A stretch of 64,000 nt of DNA. It comes from Candidatus Aquivivens invisus. GTDB taxonomy: Bacteria; Omnitrophota; Gorgyraeia; Aquiviventales; Aquiviventaceae. The notes under the pieces are model-generated. The model worked only from the letters and a program-made list of their open reading frames with translations. It was not told the origin of the DNA and did not search any database. The stretch is from positions 14,308 through 78,307 of the forward strand of contig MHGA01000006.1 in assembly GCA_001804415.1 (NCBI GenBank), written 5' to 3'. Below, in pieces: positions 30,977-61,735 of this stretch (within the stretch, counting starts at the first letter, position 1; every line of letters begins with the position of its first letter). The translations under genes were made by a program, and so were the position numbers.

Positions 30977-31939
30977 TTACTTCGAAGCGGCGCCTGAGAG
31001 CCGTTTGAGGTAGCGGAAGTAATCGCTGTCGGTCGTGAGGATCAGCGTGCTGTGCTCGTCCACGGTGGCGCGGTAGGTCTCCAGCGTCTTCAAAAACGTG
31101 TAGAACTCGGGATCCTTGTTGAACGCCTCGGCATAGACCGCGGTTGACTCGGCATCGGCCTGGCCCTTCACCTCCTGCGCCGTGCGATATGCCTCGGAAG
31201 TGATCCGCTTCAACTCCTTCTCCATCTGGCCCTCGATCTCGGCCCGCTTGCCCTGGCCTTCCGAGCGGGACTTCTCGGCGGCTTGCTTGCGCTCGGCGAT
31301 CATCCGGTCGTAGATCTTCTGGCGGACCTCCTCGATGTAGTTGATCCGCTTGACCCGCATGTCCACCAGCTCGATCCCGTAGCTGGGGACCAGTTCAGAC
31401 GCCCGCGCCAGGATCAGACGGGTCAGCTCATCGCGGCCTTTCTCGATCCGCTCGCCGACTTCAGCCGGCAGGATGATGTCTTCTCCCGTCTCGATGGGTT
31501 CATCCAGCAGCCGGTTGGAGGACCGCACTACCTCCTGGAGGATGTGGCCGGTGACCACGTCCCGGGTGGCGGAGCCGATGATGTCGTTCAAGCGGGCCAT
31601 GGCGCCAAGCTCGCTGCCGACCGTCTGCATGAAGAGCAGCGGATCGGTGATGCGCCAGCGGGCCACCTCATCGATCAAGATGAACTTCTTGTCCTTGGTC
31701 GGAATCTGCGTCGGCAGCCCGTCCCATTCGATGAGCCGTTTGTCAAAGTAGTTCGCCTGTTGGATAAACGGGCGCTTGAGGTGCAAGCCGGCCGCGGTGA
31801 TCGGCGCTCCGATCGGCTCCCCGAATTGGGTAATGACTACCTGATGAGCCTCGGTGACCACGTAGAACACCCCGCCGGCCAGCACCAGGGCCACGAGGAT
31901 GACGAGCACGAGCAGCCCAGAGATGAATCGCGCCATCAC
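30977..31939 (-). CDS. hflC: Protease modulator HflC
   Basis: SPFH/band-7 domain, N-terminal TM, follows hflK with 4-nt overlap. Confidence 0.85.
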   Translation of the reverse strand: MMARFISGLLVLVILVALVLAGGVFYVVTEAHQVVITQFGEPIGAPITAAGLHLKRPFIQQANYFDKRLIEWDGLPTQIPTKDKKFILIDEVARWRITDPLLFMQTVGSELGAMARLNDIIGSATRDVVTGHILQEVVRSSNRLLDEPIETGEDIILPAEVGERIEKGRDELTRLILARASELVPSYGIELVDMRVKRINYIEEVRQKIYDRMIAERKQAAEKSRSEGQGKRAEIEGQMEKELKRITSEAYRTAQEVKGQADAESTAVYAEAFNKDPEFYTFLKTLETYRATVDEHSTLILTTDSDYFRYLKRLSGAASK

Positions 31940-32916
31940 TCCGCTCCTCCCTTCTGCAGCTGCAGGAACGGCAGGAGCGCCTGCTGGCTGGGATCGATGA
32001 TGTACTTCTGCTTCGAGGTCGCCAGCACCTGCGCCATGGCATCGAGATAGAGGCGCTTGCGGGTCACCTCCGGGGCCTGGCGGTACGCCTCCCAGGTGGC
32101 CAGGAAGCGCTGCGCCTCCCCCTTGGCGCGATTGACCACGTCCACGGCATAGCCCTCCGCCTCGCGGATCGTCTTCTCAGCCTCGCCTTTGGCCCTTGGG
32201 ATGACCTTGTTGTAGGCCTCCCACGCCTGGTTGATCGTTCGTTCTTTTTCCTGCTTAGCCTCGTTGACCTCGTTGAAGGCTGGCTGCACGCGCTCGGGCG
32301 GAGTGACATCCTGCAACTTCACGGTGACGATCTGCACGCCTGCCCCATAGCTATCGAGGATCCGCTGGAGCTCCTCCTGCGCCTGCACGTCGATCTCGGC
32401 CCGCTTGATCGTGAGGACCTCATCCACCGAGTAGTCGCCGGTGACCCGCCGCATGACCGCCTCGGAGATGTCACGGAGGGTTTCGCGCTGATCCCGGACC
32501 CGGAACAAAAACTGCACCGGATCCTTGATCTGGAATTGGACGATCCAGCGGATCTCCAGGACATTTAAGTCCCCGGTGAGCATCAGGGATTCGTCCCGGT
32601 AGAAGTCGGAACGGGTCTGGCGCGCCCCTTGAGCCTCCGCGCGAAACCCGAATTCCTCCTTGAAGATGCGCTTGACCTTGATGGGGATGGCCCGCTCCAC
32701 CAACAACGGGATCTTCATGTGCAGGCCCGGCGTCGTCGTCCGCACGTACTTGCCAAATCGCAAGATCACCCCCGCTTCATCCGGACCGATCGAGTAAAAC
32801 GACGTCAGGGCCGCCGCAAGCAGCAGGACCAACACGATGATCGCCGGCAGCCCTTTCAGCCAGCGTTGGACTTGAACGCTCTTCAAAATGTCCTCAGGAG
32901 ACTCGAAGTCAGCCAT
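31936..32916 (-). CDS. hflK: Protease modulator HflK
   Basis: SPFH domain, HflK-type. Confidence 0.85.
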   Translation of the reverse strand: MADFESPEDILKSVQVQRWLKGLPAIIVLVLLLAAALTSFYSIGPDEAGVILRFGKYVRTTTPGLHMKIPLLVERAIPIKVKRIFKEEFGFRAEAQGARQTRSDFYRDESLMLTGDLNVLEIRWIVQFQIKDPVQFLFRVRDQRETLRDISEAVMRRVTGDYSVDEVLTIKRAEIDVQAQEELQRILDSYGAGVQIVTVKLQDVTPPERVQPAFNEVNEAKQEKERTINQAWEAYNKVIPRAKGEAEKTIREAEGYAVDVVNRAKGEAQRFLATWEAYRQAPEVTRKRLYLDAMAQVLATSKQKYIIDPSQQALLPFLQLQKGGAE

Positions 32917-33154
32917 GCGTCACCTCCGTCCGTTGGCCTGAGCGCGAATCAGCGGCAGGTGGCGCCTGAGACCGCTCGGCGTGCTGCATGTGGATCGTGC
33001 GGATGGGAAACGGAATCGTAATGTTTTCTTGGTCATACCGTTTGTGGAGCCGCTTCACGAACTCATGCTTGAGGAGGTACTGATCCACGTACTCTTTGGC
33101 TCCGAGCCGATTTCCTCTCAGCTTCACTGCCACAGAAAAACGAGAAACCGCCAT
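32909..33154 (-). pseudogene. Remnant of an MscS-family channel (C-terminal about 55 aa only)
   Basis: FVKRLHKRYDQENITIPFPIRTIHMQ matches MscS C-terminus (cf. VKNRFDELGIEIPFPHRTLYW of 35020 gene). Confidence 0.55.
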
Positions 33155-33232
33155 CCGTTGTTTCCTCGGATGGCGGCCCGACCACCGACAACTCCTCTAA
33201 GAAGGAGCATGCGCTGCCTTCTTAGACCCTTC
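33134..33232 (-). terminator. Copy 1 of a repeated two-hairpin module ending (minus orientation) in GC hairpin plus U-run; downstream of ArsB/NhaD-family gene
   Basis: Hairpins ctctaagaagg/ccttcttagag and ccgccatccg/cggatggcgg, conserved linker GGTGGTCGGGCC. Confidence 0.6.
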
Positions 33233-33288
33233 GCAGTGCTTTCAGTGTACGTGCGCGAATGGAAAAAGCAAGAAATTTCCGGCCAACC

Positions 33289-34704
33289 TCAGTGCGGCAT
33301 GAGCGACAGTTGTGCCACGAGCAGCAGGTTCGCAACCAGCAGCGTCGGAACCGCAACCAGTAGACCCGCCCTAGCCCACTGAGCAAATGTGATGGTTCCG
33401 AGCTGGCGCCGCTCTAGCATCCCAGCGGCGACGATATTCGCGGTCGAACCGATCAGCGTTGCGTTCCCCATGAGTGTCCCGCCCATCAGCATGGCCCACC
33501 ATAGCGGAAAGGGATTGAGCCCCACGCGGGCCACATCCGAGACAATCGGCACAAATGTTGCCACGGCCAGCACATTGTCCATCACCGCCGTCAGGACGCC
33601 CGAGCTCCAGGCAAACAGCGTCGTGAGCACACCGAGATGTCCGCCGGAGAGTACCACAATCCGTTGCGCCAGCACATCGGTCACCCCAGTTTGCTTCAGC
33701 GTCCCGACCGAGGCGAACAAGAACAGGAAGAATGTCAGCGTCCACCAGTCCACACGCTTCTCCACCAGTTGACGCGCCTGATCGCCGCTCATCATCAGCG
33801 CCGCCCCGGCGCCCAGAAGCGCCACACCCAAGAGCATCGTATTTGGCGGCAGATGCAGCCAATGTTCGATGGGATGGTGGAGCACAAGTCCCACCACCAC
33901 ACTGCCGAAGAGCCAGCCGCTTTGCCGCACACCTGTCTTAGCGAGCCGGGCATCCGCCACGACGTGTTCGATGTGCTCCTCGCCGCGCTTGCCCGTCAAC
34001 ACGCCCTTCAGGCCAGCAATGTCCTTGGCGAAGAGCTTGAAGCAGATGGGAATCGTGATGGCCAGGCACACGGCCGAGATTGGTGTGGCCCAGCGCAGGA
34101 AATCGAGGAATGTGAGCCCGCTGCGCAACGCAATGATGACCCCGACCGGATTGCCCACCACCGTGGCGCTGGAGCCGATATTGGTCGTGAAGACCAGCAT
34201 CAGGATGAAAGGGATCGGGTTGAGTTTTGAGCCTTTGAGCAGGTTGAGCATTGCGGCGACCATGAACAGGATGGATGTCACCTCGTCCACCAGCGCCGCG
34301 GACACCGCAGCCATCATCATCATGGCCAGCATGATCCGCCTGGGGTGCGGGCCAACGAGTTTGAGTAGGCGCTCGATGAGATGCTCGAAGAATAGCTGCT
34401 CCTCCATGAAGCCGATCACCATCATCATGGCCAGGAGGAACGCGATGATGTCCAATCCGGCGAACTCGACGAAGTGTGGGACGTCGAGGAGTCCAGCCGC
34501 CAGCAGACCAGCGATGCCAAAGCAGGCGAAGGCCAGCCGCTGGCGCCAGAACAAGATGGCGCCGTACAAGACCACGCAGAAGCCGCCGACCGCGAGAGTT
34601 TGGGAAGCGGTGAGACCCAGTCGGGCGAGGAGCAAGGGCGTCAGGACAACACCGGCGAGATACCACAGCCAGTCTCGCTTCGCTGAGACGAGGTCACCGA
34701 TCAT
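33289..34704 (-). CDS. ArsB/NhaD-superfamily (CitMHS-type) ion transporter
   Basis: 12-TM, duplicated halves typical of the ArsB/NhaD permease superfamily. Confidence 0.7.
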   Translation of the reverse strand: MIGDLVSAKRDWLWYLAGVVLTPLLLARLGLTASQTLAVGGFCVVLYGAILFWRQRLAFACFGIAGLLAAGLLDVPHFVEFAGLDIIAFLLAMMMVIGFMEEQLFFEHLIERLLKLVGPHPRRIMLAMMMMAAVSAALVDEVTSILFMVAAMLNLLKGSKLNPIPFILMLVFTTNIGSSATVVGNPVGVIIALRSGLTFLDFLRWATPISAVCLAITIPICFKLFAKDIAGLKGVLTGKRGEEHIEHVVADARLAKTGVRQSGWLFGSVVVGLVLHHPIEHWLHLPPNTMLLGVALLGAGAALMMSGDQARQLVEKRVDWWTLTFFLFLFASVGTLKQTGVTDVLAQRIVVLSGGHLGVLTTLFAWSSGVLTAVMDNVLAVATFVPIVSDVARVGLNPFPLWWAMLMGGTLMGNATLIGSTANIVAAGMLERRQLGTITFAQWARAGLLVAVPTLLVANLLLVAQLSLMPH

Positions 34705-34819
34705 GATCGTCTTTCTTGCCCTTCTTCTCTTCCTGGCGGCTCTTGATGACCACGTACGCAAAGAAATACAGGACGCCGCCGACGAGAATGAGCACTACCC
34801 AATTTGCCGGGTCATGCAT
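34694..34819 (-). CDS. Unlisted 41-aa single-TM protein with Lys-rich C-tail, overlapping start of transporter
   Basis: SD GGAGGG 6 nt upstream of ATG 34819; MHDPANWVVLILVGGVLYFFAYVVIKSRQEEKKGKKDDHDR. Confidence 0.45.
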   Translation of the reverse strand: MHDPANWVVLILVGGVLYFFAYVVIKSRQEEKKGKKDDHDR

Positions 34820-34842
34820 CGTGATCCCTCCGTAACGGGAAG

Positions 34843-34925
34843 CGCAAAATAAAAACCGCCATCTAGCAAACGCTAGGTGGCGGCCCGACCACTAGAAACT
34901 CCTCCGGGCGATATACCCGGACCCT
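34843..34925 (-). terminator. Copy 2 of the repeated two-hairpin/terminator module (downstream of mscS)
   Basis: GGAAGCGCAAAATAAAAACCGCCATC identical to copy 3; first hairpin replaced by ccggg/cccgg stem. Confidence 0.6.
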
Positions 34926-35019
34926 TATTGGTACACTCGATTATGTTTGCAATTCTATCGCAAGCGATCTACGCGATCAAGCAGAACAACGGACCCACTC
35001 GTCATGCTGCACGTGATTA

Positions 35020-36174
35020 TCACGTTTGCTGAAGACCTCTCTGTGCGGCAGCAGCGCTCTCCTTCTGCACGCCCCAATAGAGCGTCCGGTGAGGAAACGG
35101 GATCTCGATGCCCAACTCATCGAACCGATTCTTTACGCGGCGCCGGAATTCCCGGGCCACGTCCCACTGTTTGATCGGCACCGTTTTAAAGAAACACTTG
35201 AGCGTCACTTGCGACTCCCCAAATTCCTCAACGCCAAGCATCTGGAGATCCTCCAGGATGAGCTTGCCGAAAACCGGATCCTGCCGCAGCTGCCGGCCCA
35301 GTTCTTTGAGGACGTCCATGACGTGATCCACATTCTCCTTGTAGGCGACGCCGATGTTGAACACCGCTCGGGACCATTCCTTCGTCATGTTGATGACGGC
35401 TTTGATCTCGCCGTTGGGGATGTAAATGACCCTGCCTTCAAGGTCTCTGAGGACCGTCACCCGCAGATTGACGTTCTCGACCATGCCCGCCAAGTCCCCG
35501 ATTTTGATCACGTCGTTGATCCGGTACTGCCCCTCGAATAAAATGAAGATGCCGTTGATAAGATCGCGGATCAGATACTGGCCGCCGAACCCGAAGGCCA
35601 ACCCGGCAATCCCGACGCCCGCCAGGAGTGGGGCCACATTGATCCCGATGGTTTCGAGGATGACATACAGCAGACACCCAACCAGGGTGACGGTTCCCAG
35701 CCAATAGGCCAGCCGGGAGAGCGTCTTAGCCCGCAGCCGTGCCTCGCTCTCGCGGATGGCGTCTTTCTGCGACATGAGCGTTTCGATCCGGCTGATGCCT
35801 CTCTTCAACAGGAGAAACAGCACCCCGCCGAAGAACAGGATCACCATGATCTTGATGGCCTTCTCGATCCAGAGCCAGACGGCCGAGCGTTCATGCGTGA
35901 CCGCGGCTTGTAATTTGGCCTCGGCCACCACCGCCTGCTGGGCCAACTGTTCGGCTTGCGCGCCAGAGACCTGCACTTGCTCCTGGAGCGCGGCTGACTC
36001 TTTGGCCAGCGCTTCAATGCGCTGTTCGAGGACTGCGGTCTCCGGGGTTCGCTCTGTCGCTGCAGTCCCAGTAGACTGCCATGCCAGTACACAGTAGATA
36101 GCTGCAATCCCGAGCAGCCACGGCGCGCCTGTGCGCCCGGTTCCCATTCGATGTCTCATGGCGGTAGCCTCCAC
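35020..36174 (-). CDS. Mechanosensitive ion channel, MscS family, with N-terminal periplasmic coiled-coil
   Basis: MscS TM3/beta domain, C-terminus IEIPFPHRTLY. Confidence 0.8.
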   Translation of the reverse strand: MEATAMRHRMGTGRTGAPWLLGIAAIYCVLAWQSTGTAATERTPETAVLEQRIEALAKESAALQEQVQVSGAQAEQLAQQAVVAEAKLQAAVTHERSAVWLWIEKAIKIMVILFFGGVLFLLLKRGISRIETLMSQKDAIRESEARLRAKTLSRLAYWLGTVTLVGCLLYVILETIGINVAPLLAGVGIAGLAFGFGGQYLIRDLINGIFILFEGQYRINDVIKIGDLAGMVENVNLRVTVLRDLEGRVIYIPNGEIKAVINMTKEWSRAVFNIGVAYKENVDHVMDVLKELGRQLRQDPVFGKLILEDLQMLGVEEFGESQVTLKCFFKTVPIKQWDVAREFRRRVKNRFDELGIEIPFPHRTLYWGVQKESAAAAQRGLQQT

Positions 36175-36203
36175 ACGTTGTTCACCTCTTCATGGCTCTT
36201 TCC

Positions 36204-36911
36204 TCAACAACGACTCAGTGGTAGTTTTTCTGCAAGGAGCACAAGACTTGGAAGATGTGGACGCGCTCTGAGCCGCTCATATTCTATCTCACGCAAGCCG
36301 TGACGTCGGATCAGAGTGCGCAGCGATGTGATGGTGAAATAGCGAAAGTACCGTGGCCCCAATCCCGATTCGTTGACGAATCCTTCTTGCGTGCCATATC
36401 GGACAAAGAGGTAGAGTAACCCGCCAGGCTTCAGGACGCGGACGAGCTCACCCAGAGCCGCATCGGCCGCCCGCCGGGTCAGGTGGTGGAACAGCGCCTG
36501 GGCCCGCACCGCGTCAATGCTCGCCTCCCGGAGACCCAGCCGCCGGATGTCCATTTGAACCAGCGCGCCCGAATCCAGCCCGAGTGCCCGTCTTCCCGCC
36601 TGGAGCATCGCCAAGGAAGAGTCGACACCGAACGCACGAACACCTGGTTGGGCCTTCAACCAGGCCAGGTCGCGTCCGTATCCGGTGCCGGCGTCAAGGA
36701 TGAGCGGAGGCTGGGTTTCGCGCAAGCCGAGCATCTGGCGCCGTGAACGAGCGACGGCCAGCAACCGGCGCAGCCATCGCGCCTCATGGGGCCTGGGACG
36801 ATCGCCCCGGAGCCGCCGAAACGCCTCGACAAATTCCGGGTTCGCATATTGCAAGCGTGTCACCTCTTCAAAGGTGAATTCAGCGGAACGAGAGGCCCGT
36901 TTCATCCCCAT
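36204..36911 (-). CDS. Class I SAM-dependent methyltransferase
   Basis: LDAGTGYG motif I, VLKPGGLL post-I. Confidence 0.7.
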   Translation of the reverse strand: MGMKRASRSAEFTFEEVTRLQYANPEFVEAFRRLRGDRPRPHEARWLRRLLAVARSRRQMLGLRETQPPLILDAGTGYGRDLAWLKAQPGVRAFGVDSSLAMLQAGRRALGLDSGALVQMDIRRLGLREASIDAVRAQALFHHLTRRAADAALGELVRVLKPGGLLYLFVRYGTQEGFVNESGLGPRYFRYFTITSLRTLIRRHGLREIEYERLRARPHLPSLVLLAEKLPLSRC

Positions 36912-37098
36912 CAGAGCTTCCAAGAAGATAAAAGGAGCTGGGCCCCATTCTGCTTCCGCCACCACACCAACCACGCTGAGGCGGAACCACGCGAAGGAGG
37001 TGAGTCCTCGTCAGGCCCAGCTCTCATCACCAGTTAGCCGGTCTCGTCGTTCAAAGCGGGTCCATTACCACCCCTGTCTGTGGCCGATCAAGATTCCC

Positions 37099-37476
37099 TC
37101 ACTGCCCCTTGTAACGCAATTCCACCCCGTGGTTCGGGCAGAATTTGATCCCTTCGGTATAAATCTCGCCACCGACCGGGCAGATTTTGGTCTGGCCGGA
37201 TGTCAGTGGATACTGCTGTCGTTGGAGCTTCTTGTCTTGTGCCTCCAGCGCTGAGCCGATCAATCCCCCACTCAGCGCTCCTAATCCGGCGCCGATCGCC
37301 GTCCCAGCTCCGGCTTTCCCTTTTTGCTCGCCGATGATCGCGCCGGTGCCTGCCCCGAGCAATCCGCCCAGCGCTGCGCCCTGCACGGCTTTGGACTGCG
37401 CGGCGGTCTGTGCGCCTTCACATCCGACCACACCCACGAGGCTCAAGCACAACACGGACCGAGCCATCCACGCCAT
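37099..37476 (-). CDS. Glycine-zipper lipoprotein with C-terminal zinc ribbon
   Basis: Lipobox LVGVVGC, GxxxG zipper run, CPVGG...CPNHG. Confidence 0.55.
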   Translation of the reverse strand: MAWMARSVLCLSLVGVVGCEGAQTAAQSKAVQGAALGGLLGAGTGAIIGEQKGKAGAGTAIGAGLGALSGGLIGSALEAQDKKLQRQQYPLTSGQTKICPVGGEIYTEGIKFCPNHGVELRYKGQ

Positions 37477-37488
37477 CGTTGTTCCTCC

Positions 37489-37929
37489 TTAACGCCGCTG
37501 CGGCCTGGGGCGCGTGATCTCCACGGGAATCCCGCCTTCCGGCAACGGCACATCAATGCGTGTGACGGGAAAGGTGACGAGGTGCACGGCACCTCCCACC
37601 GTATCGCCGATTGCGTTCCACACCCCCTCGGCAACTCCGCGACCGATGGACTGCTTTCGCCTGAAGGCTTCCCAGGGCTCAGTCACCAGTTTGGTCCATC
37701 CAAAGACAACGTTCGTGAGTCCGAAGGCGAATTTCGCCTTGACCCGAGTACCCTGCCCGACTTCACGCGTCCAATAACTGCCCTTCCAGGGAGTGGTTGT
37801 CTTCGCCTGGGTCGGCTTCGACGATAAAGGAGAGCGACCGGTCCGCGGCCCCTCGTCTTTCGCCAACGCCAATGTGGGCGCGATGCCAAGAAGGACGATG
37901 AGCGCCCACCCATTCCATCTTGTCAACAT
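37489..37929 (-). CDS. Small secreted protein, paralog family member (KFxxGLxNxxxGWxEI...VGGAxHxxTFP)
   Basis: Signal peptide plus conserved block shared with 47084 and 56874. Confidence 0.6.
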   Translation of the reverse strand: MLTRWNGWALIVLLGIAPTLALAKDEGPRTGRSPLSSKPTQAKTTTPWKGSYWTREVGQGTRVKAKFAFGLTNVVFGWTKLVTEPWEAFRRKQSIGRGVAEGVWNAIGDTVGGAVHLVTFPVTRIDVPLPEGGIPVEITRPRPQRR

Positions 37930-37964
37930 GCCTGCCTCCTTTGTGTGAGTCATCAGACGCTCCG

Positions 37965-38411
37965 TTACTCCTCAGGAAGATAGCTCGCGAGCCTCGCCCA
38001 GGTTTTCGGCCCGACTTTGCCATCGGCTGAGAGTCCGTTGGTCCGCTGGAACTCCTTGATGGCCTGTTTGGTCTGTGGACCGATCTTGCCGTCGACGCTC
38101 CCCGTGTAGTGCCCGGCGTTCTTCAGTGCCGTCTGGATCCGCCTCGGGGTGGATTTAACGGCAGCGGCTCGTCCCGACTGGCCGAACCCTGCTTGCATTC
38201 CCTCGACACGACCTCGAAGGTAGGAGACATCCTCCCGCTGGTTCCAGGCCTTGCCTTCGATGAGTCCCAAGTGGTTCTCCAGCATGCTGACCCGGCCATC
38301 AAGCTGGGCCACCTGCATATTCAGATTCTGCGTCTGCGCTGCCCGATGGCCGGCGCATCCCGTCAGGGTGACCACCATCAGACCCAGCAAACCCATGTAC
38401 CGTCCTTTCAT
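37965..38411 (-). CDS. Lipoprotein with C-terminal peptidoglycan-binding (PG_binding_1) domain
   Basis: Lipobox LTGC; LKNAGHYTGSVDGKIGPQTKQAIKEFQRTNGLSADGKVGPKTW. Confidence 0.7.
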   Translation of the reverse strand: MKGRYMGLLGLMVVTLTGCAGHRAAQTQNLNMQVAQLDGRVSMLENHLGLIEGKAWNQREDVSYLRGRVEGMQAGFGQSGRAAAVKSTPRRIQTALKNAGHYTGSVDGKIGPQTKQAIKEFQRTNGLSADGKVGPKTWARLASYLPEE

Positions 38412-38433
38412 GTCCTCTTACCTCCTTTGCGGC

Positions 38434-39066
38434 TTACTTCATCCATCCGTCGTCGTCTGCGCGACTGACATTCTTTTCTGGCAGCGACACCATCACTGAC
38501 ACCGGCTCCGTTCTCGTGGCCATGCGGGGACGATCCAGGAAGAGCCGCACGCTGTAGGCCATGCCATCCCAGACCGGCAGCACGCATTCCCGCAACAGCT
38601 CGGATTCGTGCCTCGGTGGCAACTTCGTCATCGTGTTGAGCAGGGTGGTCACGTCGTAGTGCCGCTCCACGTCGCGTTGCCAGCGCACGGACTGCCCAGG
38701 CGACTCGGTGATTGAGCAGCTCAGCATGGCCTCATGTCTGACGTGTGTAGGATAACGCCGGCGGATGGTGTAGCCCAAGCGGGGGACGGTACACGTCAGG
38801 ATATAATCAGCTGTGCCTGTCTCCGCCGTGACAGCACGAACGCCTTTTGACCGGAGCTGATGGAGTAGAAGCTGGGTGAACTCTTCGGGGCTCAGGTGGC
38901 TTGTTTGCCGCGCCGCGGCATCAGAGACCACAGGGTTTACCAAGAGCGTCTGTGCGGCTTCGCCAGAGAACAGCGGAGGGCCTGATCGCTTCAGACCTGC
39001 GCCGGTGCCGCACCCTGTGATCCCAACAACGCACGCTACCAGGAACCACCACCACCACTGGTTCAT
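38434..39066 (-). CDS. Hypothetical lipoprotein
   Basis: MNQWWWWFLVACVVGITGC lipobox; N-terminal extension of the longer ORF rejected. Confidence 0.45.
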   Translation of the reverse strand: MNQWWWWFLVACVVGITGCGTGAGLKRSGPPLFSGEAAQTLLVNPVVSDAAARQTSHLSPEEFTQLLLHQLRSKGVRAVTAETGTADYILTCTVPRLGYTIRRRYPTHVRHEAMLSCSITESPGQSVRWQRDVERHYDVTTLLNTMTKLPPRHESELLRECVLPVWDGMAYSVRLFLDRPRMATRTEPVSVMVSLPEKNVSRADDDGWMK

Positions 39067-39079
39067 GACGTTCGACGTG

Positions 39080-39481
39080 TTACCACCTTGCTTTCTTCTT
39101 GGTCTGGGTTGCCGACGGCTTTGCTGCGGGCTGCACAGCCTTGGGCGTCTCAACGAAAATGCGCTTCGCAATGTTGTTGCCCCGCCTGACTTCGTAGTCG
39201 GCTCGGAGGAGATCGCCCATGCGGATGTTTGACGCGGGGATCACCTTGTCGTTCTTCATGATCAGGGTTTTCTTGGGGTCAATCTGGAGCGTGACCGCCT
39301 GACCCTGTGTGGGCTTCACCGTGACCATTGGGCGTTTGCTGTCCTTGACGTTCACGACGGTCACTTTGCCACTGGCAAATGATGCCGTAGACGCCTTCTT
39401 CCCCATCACCGAAGCCAGCGAACCGATCACGAACAGGCTGGCAACAGCCAGCCCGATGGCAACAATCCAACGTCTACGCAT
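39080..39481 (-). CDS. Secreted hypothetical protein
   Basis: Signal peptide, 133 aa. Confidence 0.45.
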   Translation of the reverse strand: MRRRWIVAIGLAVASLFVIGSLASVMGKKASTASFASGKVTVVNVKDSKRPMVTVKPTQGQAVTLQIDPKKTLIMKNDKVIPASNIRMGDLLRADYEVRRGNNIAKRIFVETPKAVQPAAKPSATQTKKKARW

Positions 39482-39502
39482 GGACTCCCCCTCCTTCCGT
39501 GG

Positions 39503-40243
39503 CTAATCTTCAAGCGCTGCGCGCTCCTGGGCGCGCAGGCTTCCCGGCTCCAGATACTCGCTCAACGCCGTCCACGTCTTCACCCCCACGACTCCATCCG
39601 GCTCCAGGCCGTTGGCTCGCTGAAACGACCGCAGCGCCTGGTCAGTCCGGGGGCCGAGCTCGCCATCAATCGGTCCCAGATCGAAGCCGGCCTGCGTGAG
39701 GGCGAGCTGGACTTTCTTGATTCGCTCCGGGGAGCGCAGGCGAGATTCGAGGATCGCGGAGCGGACCTCATCCCTCTTGCTCGCTGAAGCAGGAGCCTTC
39801 TCTACCTCGGTCGTTGCACTGACCTCAGGGGCATCAGACACCTGTTCCGGCGAGGGATCGAACATGGATGTGGCGGCAGCAGCGAGACGCTGAGGCGCCG
39901 GATCTTCCAGCGCTGAGCGGTCGCGGCTGCGGGCTTGTAAGGCGTTCCACGTTTCGGTGTTCACCTCGCCTGTCGGCTTCAGGTCGTTGGCGGACTGAAA
40001 CGCTTTGAGCGCACGTCGCGTCCGGTGGCCCATCTGACCATCGATCGGCCCTGGATCAAATCCTGCCTGTTGTAAGGCACGCTGGACATCGGCCAGTGGT
40101 GGAGGGAAGGCGGCCTTCGAGGACTGTCGTTCTGGTGAAGCATTAATGGTCTGCTGAAAGAACTGCCCGATGCCTTCGCGCAGCGGCCCCGCAAGCCACA
40201 GCACGATGGCGCCGATTCCGAGAATGACCAGCAGCCGTTTCAT
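39503..40243 (-). CDS. Secreted protein with two peptidoglycan-binding (PG_binding_1) domains
   Basis: Two copies of LxxAGFDxGPIDGxxGxRTxxALxxFQxANxLxxxG. Confidence 0.7.
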   Translation of the reverse strand: MKRLLVILGIGAIVLWLAGPLREGIGQFFQQTINASPERQSSKAAFPPPLADVQRALQQAGFDPGPIDGQMGHRTRRALKAFQSANDLKPTGEVNTETWNALQARSRDRSALEDPAPQRLAAAATSMFDPSPEQVSDAPEVSATTEVEKAPASASKRDEVRSAILESRLRSPERIKKVQLALTQAGFDLGPIDGELGPRTDQALRSFQRANGLEPDGVVGVKTWTALSEYLEPGSLRAQERAALED

Positions 40244-40252
40244 CGTGGACGA

Positions 40253-40960
40253 TCAGCCTCCCTGCCGCCGGAAGGCGAGCAAGGCGTTGGCAAGACGCCG
40301 GGCGATCTCTTCACGCACAGCAGGATCATTGAGCAGTGCTTCATCCTTCGAGTTGGTGAGAAAGCCGGTCTCCACCAGGACCGCTGGAATGGGCGTATGT
40401 TTCAGCACATGAAACCTGGCCTGCTTGATGCCGCGATCCTTGAGCGGCCAGTCGCGCCGAAACTCGCGCTGAATGAGCTGGGCGAGCCGATAGCTGGCAT
40501 CGGGTGAGCGAGCGCTGGCGTACGCAATACCGCGGCCGTACCGCGCGGCATCAGGCAGGTAGTACACCTCAAAGCCCGAGGCGGAGGTATTTTTGGCGGC
40601 ATTGGCGTGGATGCTCAGGAACGCCCAGGCGCCTGAGCGTTTCCCGAGATCACTACGCTGGGCCAGCGTGACCGTCTGATCTCCGGCTCGTGTCAGCATC
40701 ACGCGCAAGCCCGCTTGCTCCAACTGGCGCTTGAGGCGCCGGGTGATATCCAGCGTGACCACTTTCTCCGCGGTACCGCGTCGGCCCCGCGCGCCGACTT
40801 GCTGCCCGCCGTGCCCTGGGTCAAGAACGACATCCCAACCTGCGGGCTTGGCCGGCAGACGCGCAGGCGGCACGCGGGACGGGGCATAGACCCCTGGCGT
40901 AGCGCAGCCGGCAACGACCAATATGAGGGCCAGAGCGCCCCATCGCATGCTCCTCATCAC
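40253..40960 (-). CDS. N-acetylmuramoyl-L-alanine amidase (Amidase_3/AmiC family) lipoprotein
   Basis: LDPGHGG, FLSIHANA, VLVETGFLTN motifs. Confidence 0.8.
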   Translation of the reverse strand: MMRSMRWGALALILVVAGCATPGVYAPSRVPPARLPAKPAGWDVVLDPGHGGQQVGARGRRGTAEKVVTLDITRRLKRQLEQAGLRVMLTRAGDQTVTLAQRSDLGKRSGAWAFLSIHANAAKNTSASGFEVYYLPDAARYGRGIAYASARSPDASYRLAQLIQREFRRDWPLKDRGIKQARFHVLKHTPIPAVLVETGFLTNSKDEALLNDPAVREEIARRLANALLAFRRQGG

Positions 40961-41023
40961 ACCACTGGTTTGGATACCATGTCCCTACTTGATAGAAGCG
41001 CAGAAATCGTGCCAACGTCCTGT

Positions 41024-41058
41024 CAAAAACAAAAACCTCGTAACTGTCGTTACGAGGC
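41024..41058 (-). terminator. Intrinsic terminator after the sigma-54 two-component operon (minus strand: CCUCGUAAC-GACA-GUUACGAGG plus UUUUUGUUUUU)
   Basis: Perfect 9-bp stem and U-run read on minus strand. Confidence 0.7.
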
Positions 41059-41148
41059 TATGTTACAAGCAGCGCGTCGAGTGAAATGTTTAGGTCATAA
41101 CCGATCCTGGCTGGTTAACGGCTTGCCAGTAAGGAAAGCGTGTTGCCT

Positions 41149-42576
41149 CTAGCCCTCCCGTTGGTTGAGGTGCACCCTACGCTGGATACGGTACTTGGAG
41201 ATTTTTTCCCGAAGCGTCGGCCGGGTGATGCCCAGCAACTTCGCGGCTTGAGCCAGATTCCCCTGGGTCTGCATGAGCGCCTCCAGGATGAGCTGCGCCT
41301 CGACCTGCTCGATCAGGTGTTGGTGGGCACTGCCAGGCGCCTGCTCCAGATGCTGCCGCGCCAACTCGCGCACGGCGTTCAAGCTCTCCGGAGCCGACCG
41401 GAGCTGAACGGCCGAGCTCTGCCCGAGGCGTAGATGTTCCGGCATCAGCACATCGCCCTGGCCCAGTACCATCGCCTGCTTGATGCAGTTCTCCAGCTCG
41501 CGGACATTGCCCGGCCACTCGTAGGCGCTTAACCGCTCCAACGCCTCCGGGGATAACCGCATGCCGCTTTTCTGGAGCTCCCGGCTGTACCGCTTCAGGA
41601 AGTATTCCGCCAGCAGCGGGATGTCCTCTTTACGCTCCCGGAGTGACGGCACGGTAATCGTCACGACATGGAGCCGGTAGTAAAGATCCTCCCGAAACCG
41701 CCGGTCGCGGATCAACGCTTCGAGGTCCTGATTGGTCGCCGCCAGCAGCCGCACATCCACGCGGATCGTCTCGTGGCCTCCGAGACGTTCACACGTGCCC
41801 TCTTGGAGCACCCGTAACACCTTCGCTTGGGTGGAAGGGCTCATGTCTCCCACTTCATCTAGGAGTATGGTCCCACCGCTGGCCTGCTCAAACTTGCCCG
41901 GCTTGCGAGCCACCGCCCCCGTAAAGGCCCCCTTTTCATAGCCGAACAGTTCGCTCTCCAGGAGTGTTTCAGGAATCGCCGCGCAGTTGACCGCGATGAA
42001 CGGCCGTTCCGCCCGCTGGCTATGATGGTAGATGGCCCGGGCCACCAGCTCCTTACCGGTGCCGCTCTCCCCCCGGATCAGCACGGTCACATTGGAGGGC
42101 GCGACTTGCCCGATAAGTTTATACACCTCAATCATCTTGGAGGACTTTCCAATGATCCGCTGCGCGCGCGCATCAGCATCAGCGGCGCCGTAGGTCACAG
42201 GGGTGCGCATGAGCTGCCCCATGGCCAAGGCCCGCTCGATCAGCGCGGTCAGCTTCGGGATATCGAAGGGCTTCAGGGTGTACTCGAACGCCCCGAGCTT
42301 CATCGCCTCAATGGCGGTATCGGTCGTGCCATACGCGGTCATCATGATCACGGGCACCTTCGGGACGATGGCCTTCGCCTGCCGGAAGGTCTCCAGGCCG
42401 GAGAGCCCGGCCATGCGGATATCCATGAGAATAAGATCGGGCGAATTCGATCCGAGCAGCGAGAGCGCCTGCTCGCCGCTTTTGGCCGTGAGGACCTCAT
42501 GTCCCTTCTTACCGAGCAGGTGCTGGAATGACGTCAAGACGTTGCGCTCGTCATCTACGACGAGGATGCGGCTCAT
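41149..42576 (-). CDS. Sigma-54-dependent response regulator (NtrC family)
   Basis: REC domain MSRILVVDDE, AAA+ sigma-54 activator GESGTGKE/GAFTGA, C-terminal HTH; start at 42576 (4-nt overlap with kinase). Confidence 0.85.
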   Translation of the reverse strand: MSRILVVDDERNVLTSFQHLLGKKGHEVLTAKSGEQALSLLGSNSPDLILMDIRMAGLSGLETFRQAKAIVPKVPVIMMTAYGTTDTAIEAMKLGAFEYTLKPFDIPKLTALIERALAMGQLMRTPVTYGAADADARAQRIIGKSSKMIEVYKLIGQVAPSNVTVLIRGESGTGKELVARAIYHHSQRAERPFIAVNCAAIPETLLESELFGYEKGAFTGAVARKPGKFEQASGGTILLDEVGDMSPSTQAKVLRVLQEGTCERLGGHETIRVDVRLLAATNQDLEALIRDRRFREDLYYRLHVVTITVPSLRERKEDIPLLAEYFLKRYSRELQKSGMRLSPEALERLSAYEWPGNVRELENCIKQAMVLGQGDVLMPEHLRLGQSSAVQLRSAPESLNAVRELARQHLEQAPGSAHQHLIEQVEAQLILEALMQTQGNLAQAAKLLGITRPTLREKISKYRIQRRVHLNQREG

Positions 42577-43901
42577 GCGACCGCTCCGACAGGTTGGAGC
42601 AGCGGGAGCCGGATCGCCACCGTCGTGCCCGCCCCATGGCGATCCTTCAGTGCAATGCTGCCTCGATGCTGCTCCACCACCTTCTTGGCCAGTGACAGTC
42701 CAAGCCCGATCCCATTGGCCTTCGTCGTGAAGAAGGGCTCGAAGAGATTGGCCCGCGACTCCTTGGGGATGCCGGGGCCGGTGTCGCTCACGGAGACTTC
42801 GAGCGATCCATCCGCCCAAGAAGCCCCGATATCGACCACCCCACCTTCCGGCATGGCCTGGACGGCATTGAGGAGCAGATTCAATAGCACCTGTTCCAGC
42901 TGCTCCGCATCGCCGTGCACCAAGGGCAGGCCGTCGGACAGGCTGGTGCGGACTTGTATCGCTTGTTCCTCAAGAGTTGGCTTCATGACCTCAAGCGCCC
43001 GCGTGATGACGTCGCTGACCGCAAGCAACCGGAGGCAGGGCTCCGGCAGCCGCGCGAGGTCCAGAAAGTTCTGGACCATTCGCTCCAGCCGCTCGATCTC
43101 CTGCCGGATGACGGTCACGTGATCCTGGCTGGCGTGTGACGCCTCGAGTTCGTCCTGCAACGCGTGGATGCGCATTTTGATCGCGGTCAGGGGATTGCGC
43201 ACCTCGTGGGCGACGAGGCCTGCCATGTGCCCCAGGGAGGCGAGCTTCTCCGACTGCACCAGCCGTCGCGTCATGCTCCGCGCGATCAGCCAGCCACCGA
43301 GCACCCCCAACAGGATGGCGGTGGCCACGCTGCCCCAGAGCATCGTCTGAAACCAAATGAGCCGGTGACCGCTGGCTTGCTGCGACTCCGCGATCAGCTG
43401 CTCATTGAAGAAGAGCAGTTCCTCGCAGGAATCATAAAGCCGATCCGCCAGCTCGCGGCCATGCTGGAACAACAGCTGCTCGGCCGCGCGCGTCTCGCCA
43501 TCCTGAGCAAGCTGGATGACGTGATACCGCAGACGGTCGTACTCTTGATAGAGCAAACGAATCCGATCCAAGATTCGCTGCTCATGTGTTGTCAAGGCGA
43601 CCTGTTTAGCTTTGTTAAACCACTCCTCGAATTTGGCACGCTTCTCTTCCAGGAGCTTCAGCCATTGCGGATCGCCGTTCACCAGGTAGCTGCTGACCAG
43701 GCCTTTTTGGTCCAACAGCGTGATCTCAAGCTCTTCTGCAGCCTTGAGACTAGAGACGTTCTCGGTGAGAATGGCTTGCGAAGATCGAGCCACCGTATGG
43801 CTCATCTGCCCGGCAAGCAGACCAATCGCCACGACGAGCAGCCCGAGCAACACGGACCAGGCGAGTACTCTTGTCTTAAAGGACCACATGAGAGATTTCA
43901 C
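42573..43901 (-). CDS. Sensor histidine kinase (HisKA/HATPase, NtrB/AtoS-like)
   Basis: H-box HEVRNPLTAIK, N/G boxes, 2 TM. Confidence 0.8.
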   Translation of the reverse strand: MKSLMWSFKTRVLAWSVLLGLLVVAIGLLAGQMSHTVARSSQAILTENVSSLKAAEELEITLLDQKGLVSSYLVNGDPQWLKLLEEKRAKFEEWFNKAKQVALTTHEQRILDRIRLLYQEYDRLRYHVIQLAQDGETRAAEQLLFQHGRELADRLYDSCEELLFFNEQLIAESQQASGHRLIWFQTMLWGSVATAILLGVLGGWLIARSMTRRLVQSEKLASLGHMAGLVAHEVRNPLTAIKMRIHALQDELEASHASQDHVTVIRQEIERLERMVQNFLDLARLPEPCLRLLAVSDVITRALEVMKPTLEEQAIQVRTSLSDGLPLVHGDAEQLEQVLLNLLLNAVQAMPEGGVVDIGASWADGSLEVSVSDTGPGIPKESRANLFEPFFTTKANGIGLGLSLAKKVVEQHRGSIALKDRHGAGTTVAIRLPLLQPVGAVA

Positions 43902-44023
43902 GACGCTATTATAGCCTCATCGGCCTGGTTTCTTGTATTGCGTCCCAAATTGCTCCGTAATTGCCCGAAGATCTTGGATTGCTCGTTCGATGGTTCGCTG
44001 GCTGGCTCGTTTTCCGTCGCGGA

Positions 44024-44120
44024 AGCGCAAAATAAAAACCGCCATCCAGCAATGCTAGATGGCGGCCCGACCACCGAACCTCCTCTAAGAAGGGGCACAA
44101 GACATCCTTCTTAGACCCTT
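44024..44120 (-). terminator. Copy 3 of the repeated two-hairpin/terminator module (downstream of APC permease)
   Basis: Minus orientation: GGGUCUAAGAAGG..CCUUCUUAGAGG-AGGUUCGGUGGUCGGGCC-GCCAUCUAGCAUUGCUGGAUGGCGG-UUUUUAUUUU. Confidence 0.65.
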
Positions 44121-44167
44121 TGTGTTGTTTAGTCTACCGACATGCATAAAGCAGTCAAGAGGTATTT

Positions 44168-53757: not shown

Positions 53758-56700
53758 ATGACCCTCTCTGATCTGTCGATCAAGAAACCGGTGTTCGCCT
53801 GGATGCTCATGGCCGGGCTGATCGTCTTCGGCACGATCAGTTTTAAGCGACTGGGCGTGAGCCAGATGCCGGATGTCGAGTTTCCGGTCGTGTCCGTCGA
53901 TCTGCGATGGGAGGGTGCCGCCCCGGAGGTGATGGAGACCGACGTCGTGGATGTCACGGAAGACGTCATCACGAGCATCCAAGGCATCCGGGATATCTCT
54001 TCCTCGATCCGCCAGGGACAAGCGACGATCACCATTGAATTCGATCTGGAGCGCGACATCGACGTCGCCGTGCAGGAGGTGCAGACCAAGCTCGCCCAGG
54101 CGCAGCTGCGCCTGCCACGCGAGCTGGATCCGCCGATCGTGACCAAGGTCAATCCGCAGGATCAACCCATCATGTGGCTGGGCGTTTCAGGCGACGTGCC
54201 GAAGCGCGAGCTGATGGAGTACGTGCAGGACCACCTGAAGGATCAGTTTCAGACGATCAGCGGCGTGGGTGAAATCTTCCTGGGCGGATTTCTCGAGCGC
54301 AACCTGCGCGTCTGGATCGATGCGGACAAGCTGGAGGTCGCTCAGTTGACCATCGAGGATGTCATCACGGCGATCCAACGGGAGCACGCGGAGCTGCCGG
54401 CCGGCCGCCTGGAGACCGGCGCGAAAGAGTTCAACGTGCGCGCCATGGGCGAGGCGAGCAGCGTGGAGGAGTTCGGCAGGATCCTCATCCCGAGCCGCGG
54501 GGGCCAGCCGATCTACACCCCGATTGCCTTGAAGGATGTGGCGGTCATCGAGGACGGGCTGGCGGACCAACGGCGCATCTCCCGCATCATGGGCGAGACG
54601 GCGGTGGGCTTAGGGATCCGCAAGCAGCGCGGGGCGAACGACGTGGAGGTCGCCCGGCGGGTGCGCCGGAAAATGGCGGAGGTGGCGCAACGACTGCCTC
54701 AGGGGATCCAGCTCGGCGTCAACTTTGACCGGACGCGCTTCATCGAGGACTCGATCAACGAGCTCACCTTCACGCTGATCCTCTCGGCCATCCTGACGTC
54801 CCTGGTCTGCTGGGCGTTCCTCGGGTCGTGGAGTGCGACGCTCAACATCCTCATGGCGATCCCGACCTCGATCGTCGGATCGTTCATCTGTTTGTATTTC
54901 CTCGGCTTCACCCTCAACACCTTCACGCTGCTCGCACTCTCCCTGGCGATCGGCGTGGTGGTGGATGACGCCATCATGGTACTGGAAAACATCGTGCGCC
55001 ACCGCGAGCAGGGCCTCGCGCGGATCGAGGCGGCCAGGCTGGGCGCCCGGCAGATCACCTCGGCGGCGCTGGCGGCCACGCTGTCGATCATCGCGATCTT
55101 CCTGCCGGTGGCGTTCATGGCCGGCCTCATCGGGAAATTTTTCTTCGAATTCGGCATGACCATCTCCATCGCGGTCGCACTCTCCCTCCTGGAAGCCTTG
55201 ACGCTGGCCCCGATGCGCTGCGCCCAGTTCCTTCGGATCGGCGAGCGGCGCACGCAATTCGGCAAAGCGGTGGAATCGGCGTTTCGGATCCTGGCGGTTC
55301 GCTATCACGCGGCGCTGATCTGGTCCCTGCGGAATCGGCGAATGGTGCTCCTGGCCTCCGCGGCGATCTTCGTCGTGTCGTTGGGGGTGCTGCCGTGGCT
55401 GCGGAAGGAGTTCGTGCCGCCGCAGGATCAAAGCATGTTTTTGGTCCGGCTGCAGACGCCGGTCGGCTCGTCGATCGAGTTCACGGATGAGCAATTCAAG
55501 CTGGCGGAGCAGTTCGCGATGAGCCGCCCGGAGATCAAGCGCTATTTCGGAGCCATCGGCGGCTTCGGCGGCGGGGAGGTGAACGCGGGCATCTTGTTCA
55601 TCACCCTCCATCCGCCGCGCCAGCGCCGGATCGTGCCGCCGGACAGACATCCCCTGTCGCAACGCGAGTTGATGGCGCTCTTCCGGAAGGAGCTCAACGC
55701 CATTCCCGATGTGAAGGCCTCGATTCAAGACCTGAGCCTCAGCGGGTTCTCCGCCCAGCGGGGATTTCCCATTGAGTTCAGCATCCGCGGACCGGACTGG
55801 GAGCAGCTCGGCGTCATCGCGCAGGAGATGGAACGGCGGATGAGCCGAAACCCCCTCATGGTGGACGTCGACAGCGACTACTTGACCGGCGTGCCGGAGG
55901 TGCGCGTGCGGCCCGACCGCCGGCAGGCGGCGGCGCGCGGTGTCAGCATGGCGACGATCGCGCGGACCATCAACGCGCTCATCGGGGGGGAGCGGGTGGC
56001 CAAGTACACCCGCGGAGGCCGGCGCTACGACGTGCGGGTGCGGTTGATGCCGACCCAGCGTCTGCAGGCCGATGACATCGAGCGGTTATGGGTCTGGAAC
56101 CGCCACGGCGAGCTGGTCCAACTGAAGGACATCGTGACGATCACCGAAAATCCGTCGCTGTTGACCATCACGCGCAAGAACCGCGAGCGGGCCATCAGCG
56201 TTTTCTCGAACATCGCCCCGGGCCGGTCGCAGGCGGAGGCATTGCGGGAGGTGCAGCGGATCGCCAAGGACGTCCTGCCGCAGGGCTATCACGCGGTCTT
56301 CGGCGGCAGCGCGCAGACGTTCCGCGAGTCGTTTCAAAGCCTCCTGTTTGTCCTGTGGCTCGGCGTCCTCGTGGCGTACATGGTGCTGGCGTCGCAGTAC
56401 AACAGCTACCTCCATCCCGTCCTGGTGCTCTTAGCACTTCCGTTCAGCGTCTCCGGCGCCCTGATGGCGCTCTGGGTGGGAGGGCAGTCGCTGAACATTT
56501 ACAGTTTCATCGGACTGATCTTGCTGATGGGGATCGTCAAGAAAAACTCCATCCTGTTGGTGGACTTCACCAACCAGCTTCGGGAACAAGGGCAGGGCGT
56601 CCATGAGGCGCTCCTGAACGCGTGCCCCATGCGGCTGCGTCCGATCCTCATGACGTCCATCTCGACGGTGGCGGCCGCTGTCCCTCCGGCCCTGGCCGTG

Positions 56701-61471: not shown

Positions 61472-61512
61472 GGAAAAAGAAAACGGCCCCGCGCTCGCAA
61501 GAGCGCAGGGCC
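61472..61512 (-). terminator. Intrinsic terminator of cspA (GGCCCUGCGCUC-UUGC-GAGCGCGGGGCC plus UUUUCUUUUUCC)
   Basis: Read on minus strand directly after cspA stop. Confidence 0.7.
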
Positions 61513-61531
61513 GCTTCCGGCGAGCCCAACG

Positions 61532-61735
61532 CTAGGCGGCCTTCGTCACGTTGGCAGCCTGAGGACCTTTCGGTCCTTGGGTGACCTCGAACTCCACCTG
61601 TTGGCCTTCCTGAAGGCTGCGAAAGCCGTCAGCTTTGATGGCGCTGTGATGGACGAACACGTCCTTCGACCCGTCCTCCGGGGTGATGAACCCATACCCC
61701 TTCTGGTCGCTGAACCACTTCACGGTACCCTTCGC
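61532..61735 (-). CDS. cspA: Cold-shock protein CspA family
   Basis: [18 protein letters not shown]..., RNP motifs; long 5' leader. Confidence 0.9.

Follow-up and report, generated by a model that had tools for sequence, protein, structure and literature searches.

The minus strand of a 64-kb stretch of DNA from Candidatus Aquivivens invisus (contig MHGA01000006.1; the whole stretch is called the window hereafter), a host labelled Omnitrophota, carries three two-hairpin modules of ~95 nucleotides (nt), at 33134-33232 (copy 1), 34843-34925 (copy 2), and 44024-44120 (copy 3). By exact protein identity, the window matches contig MHHE01000042.1 of the groundwater metagenome-assembled genome GCA_001805925.1 as well as several contigs from groundwater metagenomes; at NCBI, the proteins carry the labels Omnitrophica WOR_2 bacterium GWA2_63_20 and GWF2_63_9, under Candidatus Omnitrophota. 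These modules are members of a known curated RNA family, nhaA-I (RF03057), and not a new RNA. They very probably act in cis as nhaA-I (Li+-I class) riboswitches of the intrinsic-terminator subtype, the architecture that has been published under the name Na+-II, and they are the 5' leaders of the operons downstream of them, standing in front of rather than behind the genes that they serve. An original prediction, made from the sequence of this stretch, had described the modules as an RNA structure under selection, in which stems covary and the 3' end is a terminator, and had proposed a reusable terminator cassette, a miniature inverted-repeat transposable element (MITE), or a multicopy small RNA (sRNA) with an exposed AGGAGG/GGUGGUCGGGCC motif. 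Its observation is real and, with small corrections, partly confirmed; its interpretation is partly supported, in that the selected, covarying structure with a terminator end is borne out, but none of the three proposed identities is the best explanation of modules that match a curated riboswitch family.

Three nhaA-I elements with mutually exclusive helices

An Rfam scan of the whole window, which had been suggested alongside the original prediction and was the right check to make, returned exactly three matches above the curated thresholds. All are to nhaA-I and all are on the minus strand, at 34875-34924 (42.9 bits), 33168-33229 (42.7 bits), and 44057-44118 (42.5 bits), against a curated gathering score of 37 bits. 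The alignments run untruncated over model positions 1-55 of 55 in all three copies, with E-values from 3.5e-5 to 4.5e-5. At Rfam E <= 0.5, the window holds no further nhaA-I copy and no other riboswitch family, a sub-threshold match to cspA being the only one besides nhaA-I; the DUF1646 model of the Na+-I class is therefore not matched. The nhaA-I motif itself reportedly goes back to Weinberg et al. in 2017. RNAs of this family have been characterized as Li+-responsive ON switches (Li+-I), located mostly before nhaA (White et al. 2022, PMC9646797), and have been reported from Alpha-, Beta-, Gamma-, and Deltaproteobacteria (PMC9646797). The cspA thermoregulator match, at 61482-61866 on the minus strand, covers the whole model (43.1 bits against a gathering score of 78; E = 9.8e-8) and is likely to reflect the gene of a cold-shock protein together with its leader. 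A one-mismatch copy of the module core at 55907-55918 was considered as a fourth module and rejected, as it lies in GC-rich, coding-like sequence without P1 or a terminator.

On re-reading the sequence, we find all three modules present at the predicted places and built to a common layout. On the minus strand, (A)AGGGUC leads into a first hairpin, GAGGAG and a small number of variable bases connect this to GGUGGUCGGGCCGCCA(U/C)C, and another hairpin and a U-run complete the module. The first hairpin, which is helix P1 of the family, reads UCUAAGAAGG/CCUUCUUAGA in copies 1 and 3 and UCCGGG/CCCGGA in copy 2, where the P1 sequence is entirely different. Each 3' hairpin keeps its pairing despite changed bases and is followed by a U-run, both in the sequence and in the computed folds. 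GGGU, the AGG linker, and the P2 loop CGGGCC closed by U-G are identical in all three copies. Linker and flank had been called nearly identical between copies; this holds for the core GGTCGGGCCGCC, which all three contain and which has three exact matches in the 64-kb window, but the 26-nt flank GGAAGCGCAAAATAAAAACCGCCATC is common to copies 2 and 3 only. A composite pattern matches copies 2 and 3, with 0.00 matches expected from shuffles. Overall, similarity between copies is confined to blocks of 27-32 nt within the RNA, plus 18 nt common to copies 2 and 3.

The Rfam alignment assigns GGGU to the conserved 5' tail, hairpin 1 to P1, the AGG that follows to the conserved start of the P1-P2 linker (J1/2), GGUGGUCGGGCC to the P2 5' arm (GGUGGU) and most of the loop (CGGGCC), and GCCAUC to the P2 3' arm. 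The segment GGUGGUCGGGCC, which had been taken for a single-stranded linker, is not one: GGUGGU pairs with GCCAUC to form P2 with the loop CGGGCC, in the Rfam alignment as well as in truncated folds. What had been described as an exposed motif is the aptamer core, made up of the conserved AGG of J1/2, the P2 5' arm, and the loop. In the D. propionicus RNA, mutations in the linker AGG (M2, GG to AA) and on the 5' side of the P2 loop (M3, CC to UU) abolished the response (PMC9646797). The second hairpin of the original prediction starts within the P2 loop (GGGCCGCCAUC...), and its 5' arm is the P2 3' arm. Because the terminator reuses this arm, P2 and the terminator are mutually exclusive.

In copy 3, the aptamer (44057-44118, minus strand, as for all features that follow) comprises GGGU, P1 UCUAAGAAGG/CCUUCUUAGA, the AGG linker, and P2 GGUGGU/GCCAUC with the loop CGGGCC. 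The fold of its intrinsic terminator (44024-44068) is a 15-pair stem built from the P2 loop and 3' arm and followed by UUUUUAUUUU; the terminator hairpin has a computed energy of -24.4 kcal/mol, and enforcing P2 costs +14.1 kcal/mol. The copy 2 aptamer (34875-34924; P1 UCCGGGU/GCCCGGA, P2 AGUGGU/GCCACC/U, loop CGGGCC) is likewise overlapped in P2 by its intrinsic terminator (34843-34886), again followed by UUUUUAUUUU, with a hairpin of -21.3 kcal/mol and a cost of +10.0 kcal/mol for P2. Copy 1 has the same P1 as copy 3 (aptamer at 33168-33229) and a terminator that overlaps P2 and ends in an interrupted U-run (UUUCUCGUUUUUCU; 33134-33179), with corresponding values of -21.6 and +8.2 kcal/mol. 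Folded at full length, the RNAs adopt P1 and a 12-15-pair hairpin followed by U's, and when cut after P2, they adopt P1 and P2. The terminator is thus favoured by 8-14 kcal/mol, and P2 must therefore be captured kinetically or by ligand.

The modules accordingly have the Na+-II architecture, an nhaA-I-like aptamer in which the 3' arm of P2 also belongs to an intrinsic terminator. Na+-II was the name given to 'rare variants' of nhaA-I with an intrinsic terminator, found only in Deltaproteobacteria and before hypothetical genes (PMC9646797); the terminator-bearing RNA of D. propionicus showed cation-dependent read-through in single-round transcription and responded to Na+ (PMC9646797). A mechanism in which a terminator competes with P2 has been demonstrated for the Na+-I riboswitches, or DUF1646 motif (White et al. 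2022 Nat Chem Biol, PMC9337991). In the model that we propose for the window, each transcript would start at its own promoter, a few nt upstream of GGGU, and in the nascent RNA P1 would form first, followed by P2 with its loop CGGGCC. A bound monovalent cation, most likely Na+, with Li+ and perhaps NH4+ also active, would hold P2, thereby leaving the terminator without its 5' arm (P2 loop plus 3' arm) and allowing RNA polymerase to enter the operon (ON). Without ligand, the far more stable terminator would form, and a transcript of ~100 nt would be released (OFF).

Covariation among related elements supports both helices. We built a gap-free alignment of 64 distinct elements of the terminator type, all taken from genomes and metagenomes other than the window, with the register anchored only on invariant single-stranded motifs. 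These rows had been pre-selected for pairing, which inflates the proportion of paired cells (95.2% for P1 and P2, 94.5% for the terminator) but not the counts of double-sided changes, which occur in 11 of 13 pairs of P1 and P2 and in 7 of 14 terminator pairs; the search pattern had, in addition, fixed GAGG and parts of the core in them. The covariation score for P1 and P2 is 0.549, against 0.274 for shuffles and at most 0.21 for slid partners, and that for the terminator is 0.366 against 0.203. Three-way changes that join the P2 5' arm, the shared arm, and the terminator 3' arm are seen as G-C-G (n = 34) and A-U-A (n = 13), so that the shared arm covaries with both of its partners, as a two-state switch predicts.

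Relatives in other genomes and the ligand

A pattern scan of species-representative genomes (GAGG..RGYCGGGCCGC..GCGGYYTTT) gave at least 120 loci. Of these, at least 73 terminator-type elements, under at least seven phylum-level labels, passed filters that required xGGU, a hairpin at P1, and pairing in P2. Among the matches listed, these labels are Thermodesulfobacteriota/Syntrophia/Desulfobacterales (~30), Omnitrophota (~13), Elusimicrobia (~8), Planctomycetes (4), Spirochaetes (3), Nitrospirae (2), and NC10 (1). A register-anchored terminator detector called 45, then 68, of the 107 elements listed and missed bulged stems; by eye, nearly all of the uncalled elements end in a hairpin and a U-run. 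Terminator-bearing nhaA-I RNAs, reported as rare and restricted to Deltaproteobacteria, are thus also present in metagenome-assembled genomes (MAGs) labelled Omnitrophota, Elusimicrobia, Planctomycetes, Spirochaetes, Nitrospirae, and NC10. Tandem arrangements of two or three such elements, ~115-250 nt apart, were observed in Desulfobulbaceae, Thermodesulfobacteriota, and other MAGs (L045:504-822, L108, L061, L034, L079, L090, L111, and L126), and echo the single environmental triple arrangement mentioned earlier (White et al. 2022, PMC9646797).

The first downstream open reading frames (ORFs) of the matches listed, 49 proteins in all, include Glyco_transf_20/otsA (7), MscS (7), CitMHS (5), pentapeptide repeats (4), Na_H_Exchanger (3), and one each of NhaA, Rnf-Nqr, and Band_7. 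Judged by these families, the downstream genes look like a regulon for salt and osmotic stress, not one for the export of lithium, a neighbourhood that fits the earlier authors' remark that otsA-linked members might be Na+ sensors (PMC9646797).

The nucleotide immediately 5' of CGGGCC, position 54 of the D. propionicus RNA, is C in that RNA, the only Na+-selective variant assayed, and U in most nhaA-I RNAs (PMC9646797), and its C54U mutant (M4) responded to Li+, Na+, and NH4+ (PMC9646797). All three copies in the window carry U at this position (GGUCGGGCC) and not the C54 of the Na+-II RNA, the compared segments being GUUAGCCGGGCC in D. propionicus, GUUAGUCGGGCC in M4, and GGUGGUCGGGCC in the window. 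Among the 73 matches listed, U likewise prevails (66 with U, 7 with C), i.e., most terminator-type elements have U at the sole position so far tied to Na+ versus Li+ selectivity. In the lower part of P1, the window copies share GGGUC...GAGG with the D. propionicus RNA, and not the GGGUG...CAGG of the three validated Li+-I RNAs. In U54 and the lower P1, they are natural equivalents of M4. Judging from this resemblance to M4 and from the gene neighbourhood, a response to Na+, or a broad one to Na+, Li+, and NH4+, seems more likely than a strict response to Li+.

Strictly Li+-selective Li+-I riboswitches acting against lithium toxicity, like the validated RNAs of A. caulinodans, P. monteilii, and R. 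eutropha, are on the same evidence an unlikely identity for the modules. The full-length nhaA-I scores suit such an identity, as does the U of GGUCGGGCC, which all three copies share with most Li+-I RNAs, but the same U in the same configuration gave the C54U mutant its response to three cations, and both the terminator platform and the GGGUC...GAGG lower P1 are those of the Na+-responsive D. propionicus RNA. The downstream genes (otsA, mscS, Na+/H+ exchangers, hflKC) also point to salt or osmotic stress, with nhaA accounting for 1 of the 49 proteins among the matches listed. It is conceivable, and we advance it tentatively, that the terminator-type nhaA-I RNAs form a large cross-phylum subclass that senses general monovalent-cation or salt load instead of Li+ in particular and serves an osmotic-stress regulon, as a promoter-aptamer-terminator unit which in the window has been copied before a kinase operon. 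Most of these RNAs, the three copies of the window among them, combine U54 with the lower P1 of the Na+-II RNA, in the manner of M4. If this were true, the regulon of the subclass would consist of trehalose synthesis, MscS channels, Na+/H+ transporters, and HflKC, and a kinase/sigma-54 activator cascade would be under direct ion control in this Omnitrophota-labelled lineage.

Predicted target operons and their gain and loss

All relevant genes lie on the minus strand, and the modules follow an APC permease gene (copy 3), mscS_A (copy 2), and a CitMHS transporter gene (copy 1), each lying 40-60 nt past the same-strand stop codon and 10-25 nt past a promoter-like site. Their placement just downstream of a gene, as first described, is correct by position, but each has a sigma-70-like promoter site of its own between the preceding stop codon and GGGU, and each immediately precedes an operon on the same strand. 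The sites of copies 2 and 3 come from a scan, TTGATC-17-TAGAAT at 34952-34980, 40 nt past the mscS_A stop, and TTGACT-16-TAGACT at 44131-44158, 10 nt past the APC permease stop. For copy 1, a weaker site below the scan threshold, TTGCTT-16-TACACT at 33244-33271, was picked out by eye; its orthologue in the related locus L128 reads TTGACT-17-TATTCT.

Read in this orientation, copy 3 would control a sensor histidine kinase (Pfam domains 4HB_MCP, HisKA, and HATPase_c; 42573-43901), the first gene after it, together with a sigma-54-dependent response regulator of the NtrC family (41149-42576), whose gene has a 4-nt overlap with the stop codon of the kinase. Directly after the regulator gene stands a strong hairpin of terminator type (11 pairs and a T-run; 41034-41059, minus strand), which is probably the end of this kinase-regulator operon. 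Copy 2 would control a 41-residue single-pass membrane ORF (MHDPANWVVLILVGGVLYFF...; 34694-34819), preceded by GGAGGG and overlapping the transporter start by 11 nt, and the 471-residue CitMHS/ArsB-type permease of the NhaD-like ion transporter superfamily (33289-34704). Copy 1 would here control only a remnant of mscS_B (its last ~62 codons by sequence comparison; 32909-33105), hflK (31936-32916), whose start overlaps the end of the remnant, and hflC (30977-31939), and ancestrally would have controlled mscS_B-hflK-hflC. Genes listed downstream of the family in Supplementary Table I of White et al. include a citrate-type transporter, nhaD, and mscS (PMC9646797). The position of copy 2 before a CitMHS/NhaD-like transporter and that of copy 1, ancestrally, before mscS are in keeping with this context; the two-component system after copy 3 is atypical for the family and not conserved. 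For annotation, three 'repeats' become three operons under predicted riboswitch control, with the orientation relative to the genes served corrected.

The same geometry bears on the idea that the modules are passive 3'-end cassettes, i.e., intrinsic terminators that carry a 5' hairpin for stability and serve the upstream genes for the APC permease, mscS_A, and the CitMHS transporter. Each does lie 40-60 nt after a same-strand stop codon with no other terminator-like hairpin in between, so that read-through from upstream would end there, and, since the upstream genes lack their own terminators, their transcripts probably stop at those of the riboswitches as well. This role is secondary at best, and as a full account the cassette is very improbable: it leaves unexplained the invariant GGGU/AGG/CGGGCC, the covarying P2 that competes with the terminator, and the promoter-like sites between stop codon and module, and elsewhere the element precedes mscS, otsA, or transporter genes whatever lies upstream. 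We give as little credence to the proposal that the terminated transcripts act in trans as sRNAs through GGAGG/GGUGGUCGGGCC. Trans-acting riboswitch fragments are known for other classes, and from the folds the OFF state should leave a discrete ~100-nt RNA with the terminator hairpin at each locus; the supposed seed, however, is base-paired or ligand-binding in the aptamer, no complementary target was found, though none was looked for, and trans action, which would be compatible with the cis mechanism rather than exclusive of it, is superfluous for explaining the conservation.

Copy 1 is the ancestral leader of an mscS-hflKC operon, because relatives carry an intact mscS_B downstream of it. 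At 80-83% identity, relatives have the order promoter, riboswitch, terminator, mscS_B, hflK, and some twelve mscS_B homologues that are more distant also have the core motif ~190 nt upstream. L127, a metagenome contig of 97% identity, begins in the copy 1 terminator and continues through the same 5' untranslated region to an intact mscS_B start codon, and the sister contig L005 has a full-length MscS before hflK whose last 62 residues are the end of an 81-residue ORF of the window. Alignments place the junction of a ~925-bp deletion at about 33105/33106, which removed the mscS_B start codon and most of the gene. The 81-residue ORF (32909-33154) was rejected as a real small gene: it has no Pfam match, its ATG lies inside the terminator, and 62 of its residues are the MscS C-terminus. 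Set against the intact gene in sister contigs from the same aquifer (L005:49-1035 and L127:1-1197), the deletion is a presence/absence polymorphism within the population, in which the window holds the dominant allele, with ~925 bp missing from an mscS under predicted riboswitch control.

The gene associations of copies 2 and 3 are less stable. A conserved role of copy 2 as a CitMHS leader is unsupported: upstream of the orthologous transporter gene in L128 (76% identity), both the riboswitch and the small ORF are missing, and in L149 the corresponding pair comes after the transporter. The small membrane ORF (MHDPANW[VL]VLILVGGVL[YF]FF.YVVIKSRQE...), which has no Pfam family, follows a copy-2-type riboswitch in two arrangements (window 34694-34819 and L149:407-544) and may be the original cargo of that riboswitch. 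In L149 (1-1200), the order is transporter end, copy-2-like riboswitch, 45-residue ORF, 90-residue membrane ORF, copy-1-like riboswitch, and mscS_B, with only 580 nt between the two riboswitches; we take the 90-residue ORF, by eye, to be possibly DUF202/YidH-like. That this arrangement differs from the one in the window indicates shuffling of the modules between close relatives. Copy 3 looks chimeric, with a P1 identical to that of copy 1 and a terminator tail and 18 nt of flank identical to those of copy 2. In relatives at 86-88% identity, a small ORF occupies its place, of which the window retains only the 3' end, starting right after the terminator tail. From this comparison, copy 3 appears to have been newly placed before the two-component operon in this lineage, replacing part of the small ORF, and its placement is the grain of truth in the cassette idea.

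A MITE-like mobile element spreading the hairpin module might be thought of on account of the three copies within 11 kb, the lineage-specific, chimeric-looking copy 3 beside a truncated ORF, and the copy-2-plus-small-ORF module at different positions in related genomes, but it is the least probable of the alternatives: no terminal inverted repeats or target-site duplications are apparent on reading (no dedicated inverted-repeat search was run), the copies are not alike end to end beyond the RNA-structured segment and the 18 nt of copies 2 and 3, P1 of copy 2 is unrelated to that of copies 1 and 3, the junction of copy 1 with a truncated gene is the mscS_B deletion and not an insertion, and in phylum after phylum the family occurs as a leader linked to genes.

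Besides the pre-selection of the alignment rows, several points weigh against reading the three modules as working cis-acting switches of the operons that follow them. None of seven orthologous kinase loci (0/7; L207-L213, 55-90% identity) has an nhaA-I element upstream, an eighth, L214, being uninformative with only 85 nt upstream, and a conserved riboswitch-to-two-component-system wiring was rejected on these seven. A conserved TATAAT-containing motif, GAGGCTATAATAGCGTCGTG, abuts the kinase start codon in all relatives, and could give kinase transcription that is independent of the riboswitch. With U54 in the window and a broad response (Li+, Na+, NH4+) of the C54U mutant, no single ligand can be named. 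The interrupted U-run of copy 1 and the pseudogene remnant downstream of it suggest that this copy may be decaying.

Two observations concern the kinase gene itself. The ~20-nt motif GAGGCTATAATAGCGTCGTGAA, at ~43899-43922 on the minus strand of the window, is kept in kinase orthologues down to 55% identity (L207:2480-2503, and upstream of the kinase start in L210-L213), with the end of its TATAAT box 6 nt ahead of the GTG at which the sensor kinase starts. The motif may act as a dedicated promoter, in which case the mRNA would have a short leader or none, or as a site that controls translation. In one relative with a 70%-identical kinase (L208:1116-2504), the kinase gene directly overlaps the end of rpoN, which encodes sigma-54, so that even the structure of the operon ties the two-component system to sigma-54.

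Comparison with known riboswitch classes

Taken as nhaA-I leaders, the modules of this locus present a riboswitch leader that gains a target, the two-component system, and loses another, the deleted mscS, within one groundwater population. Their wider value is modest and consists of a host-range extension, the ligand question, and this example of a leader gaining and losing targets.

With the Li+-I riboswitches (PMC9646797), the window copies share GGGU, P1, the AGG linker, the P2 loop CGGGCC closed by U-G, a full-length match to the family model, a position upstream of ion-transport genes, and ON-switch behaviour, which is predicted here. They differ in the lower P1, GGGUC...GAGG as opposed to GGGUG...CAGG in the validated Li+-I RNAs, and in the expression platform, an intrinsic terminator here, whereas most Li+-I members are presumed to act by occlusion of the ribosome-binding site. 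The genes downstream of the window copies are not nhaA, and the host is labelled Omnitrophota, in contrast to the proteobacterial classes of that work.

The Na+-II RNA of D. propionicus has the same aptamer scaffold, including the lower P1 GGGUC...GAGG, a terminator overlapping the P2 3' arm, and an ON logic by anti-termination like the one predicted here; tandem and multiple copies occur in the relatives described above. However, the tested RNA has C54 (AGCCGGGCC), whereas the window copies and 66 of the 73 terminator-type elements among the matches listed have U, like M4. Moreover, the paper places these variants only in Deltaproteobacteria and before hypothetical genes, whereas the window has a host with the label Omnitrophota and downstream genes that can be identified. 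The Na+-I (DUF1646) riboswitches, finally, resemble the window copies in a similar two-hairpin consensus, in the competition of a terminator with P2, and as ON switches for Na+ homeostasis and osmotic-stress genes, and are distinguished from them by their conserved lower P1 and P2 loop, as described in the respective papers (PMC9337991, PMC9646797).

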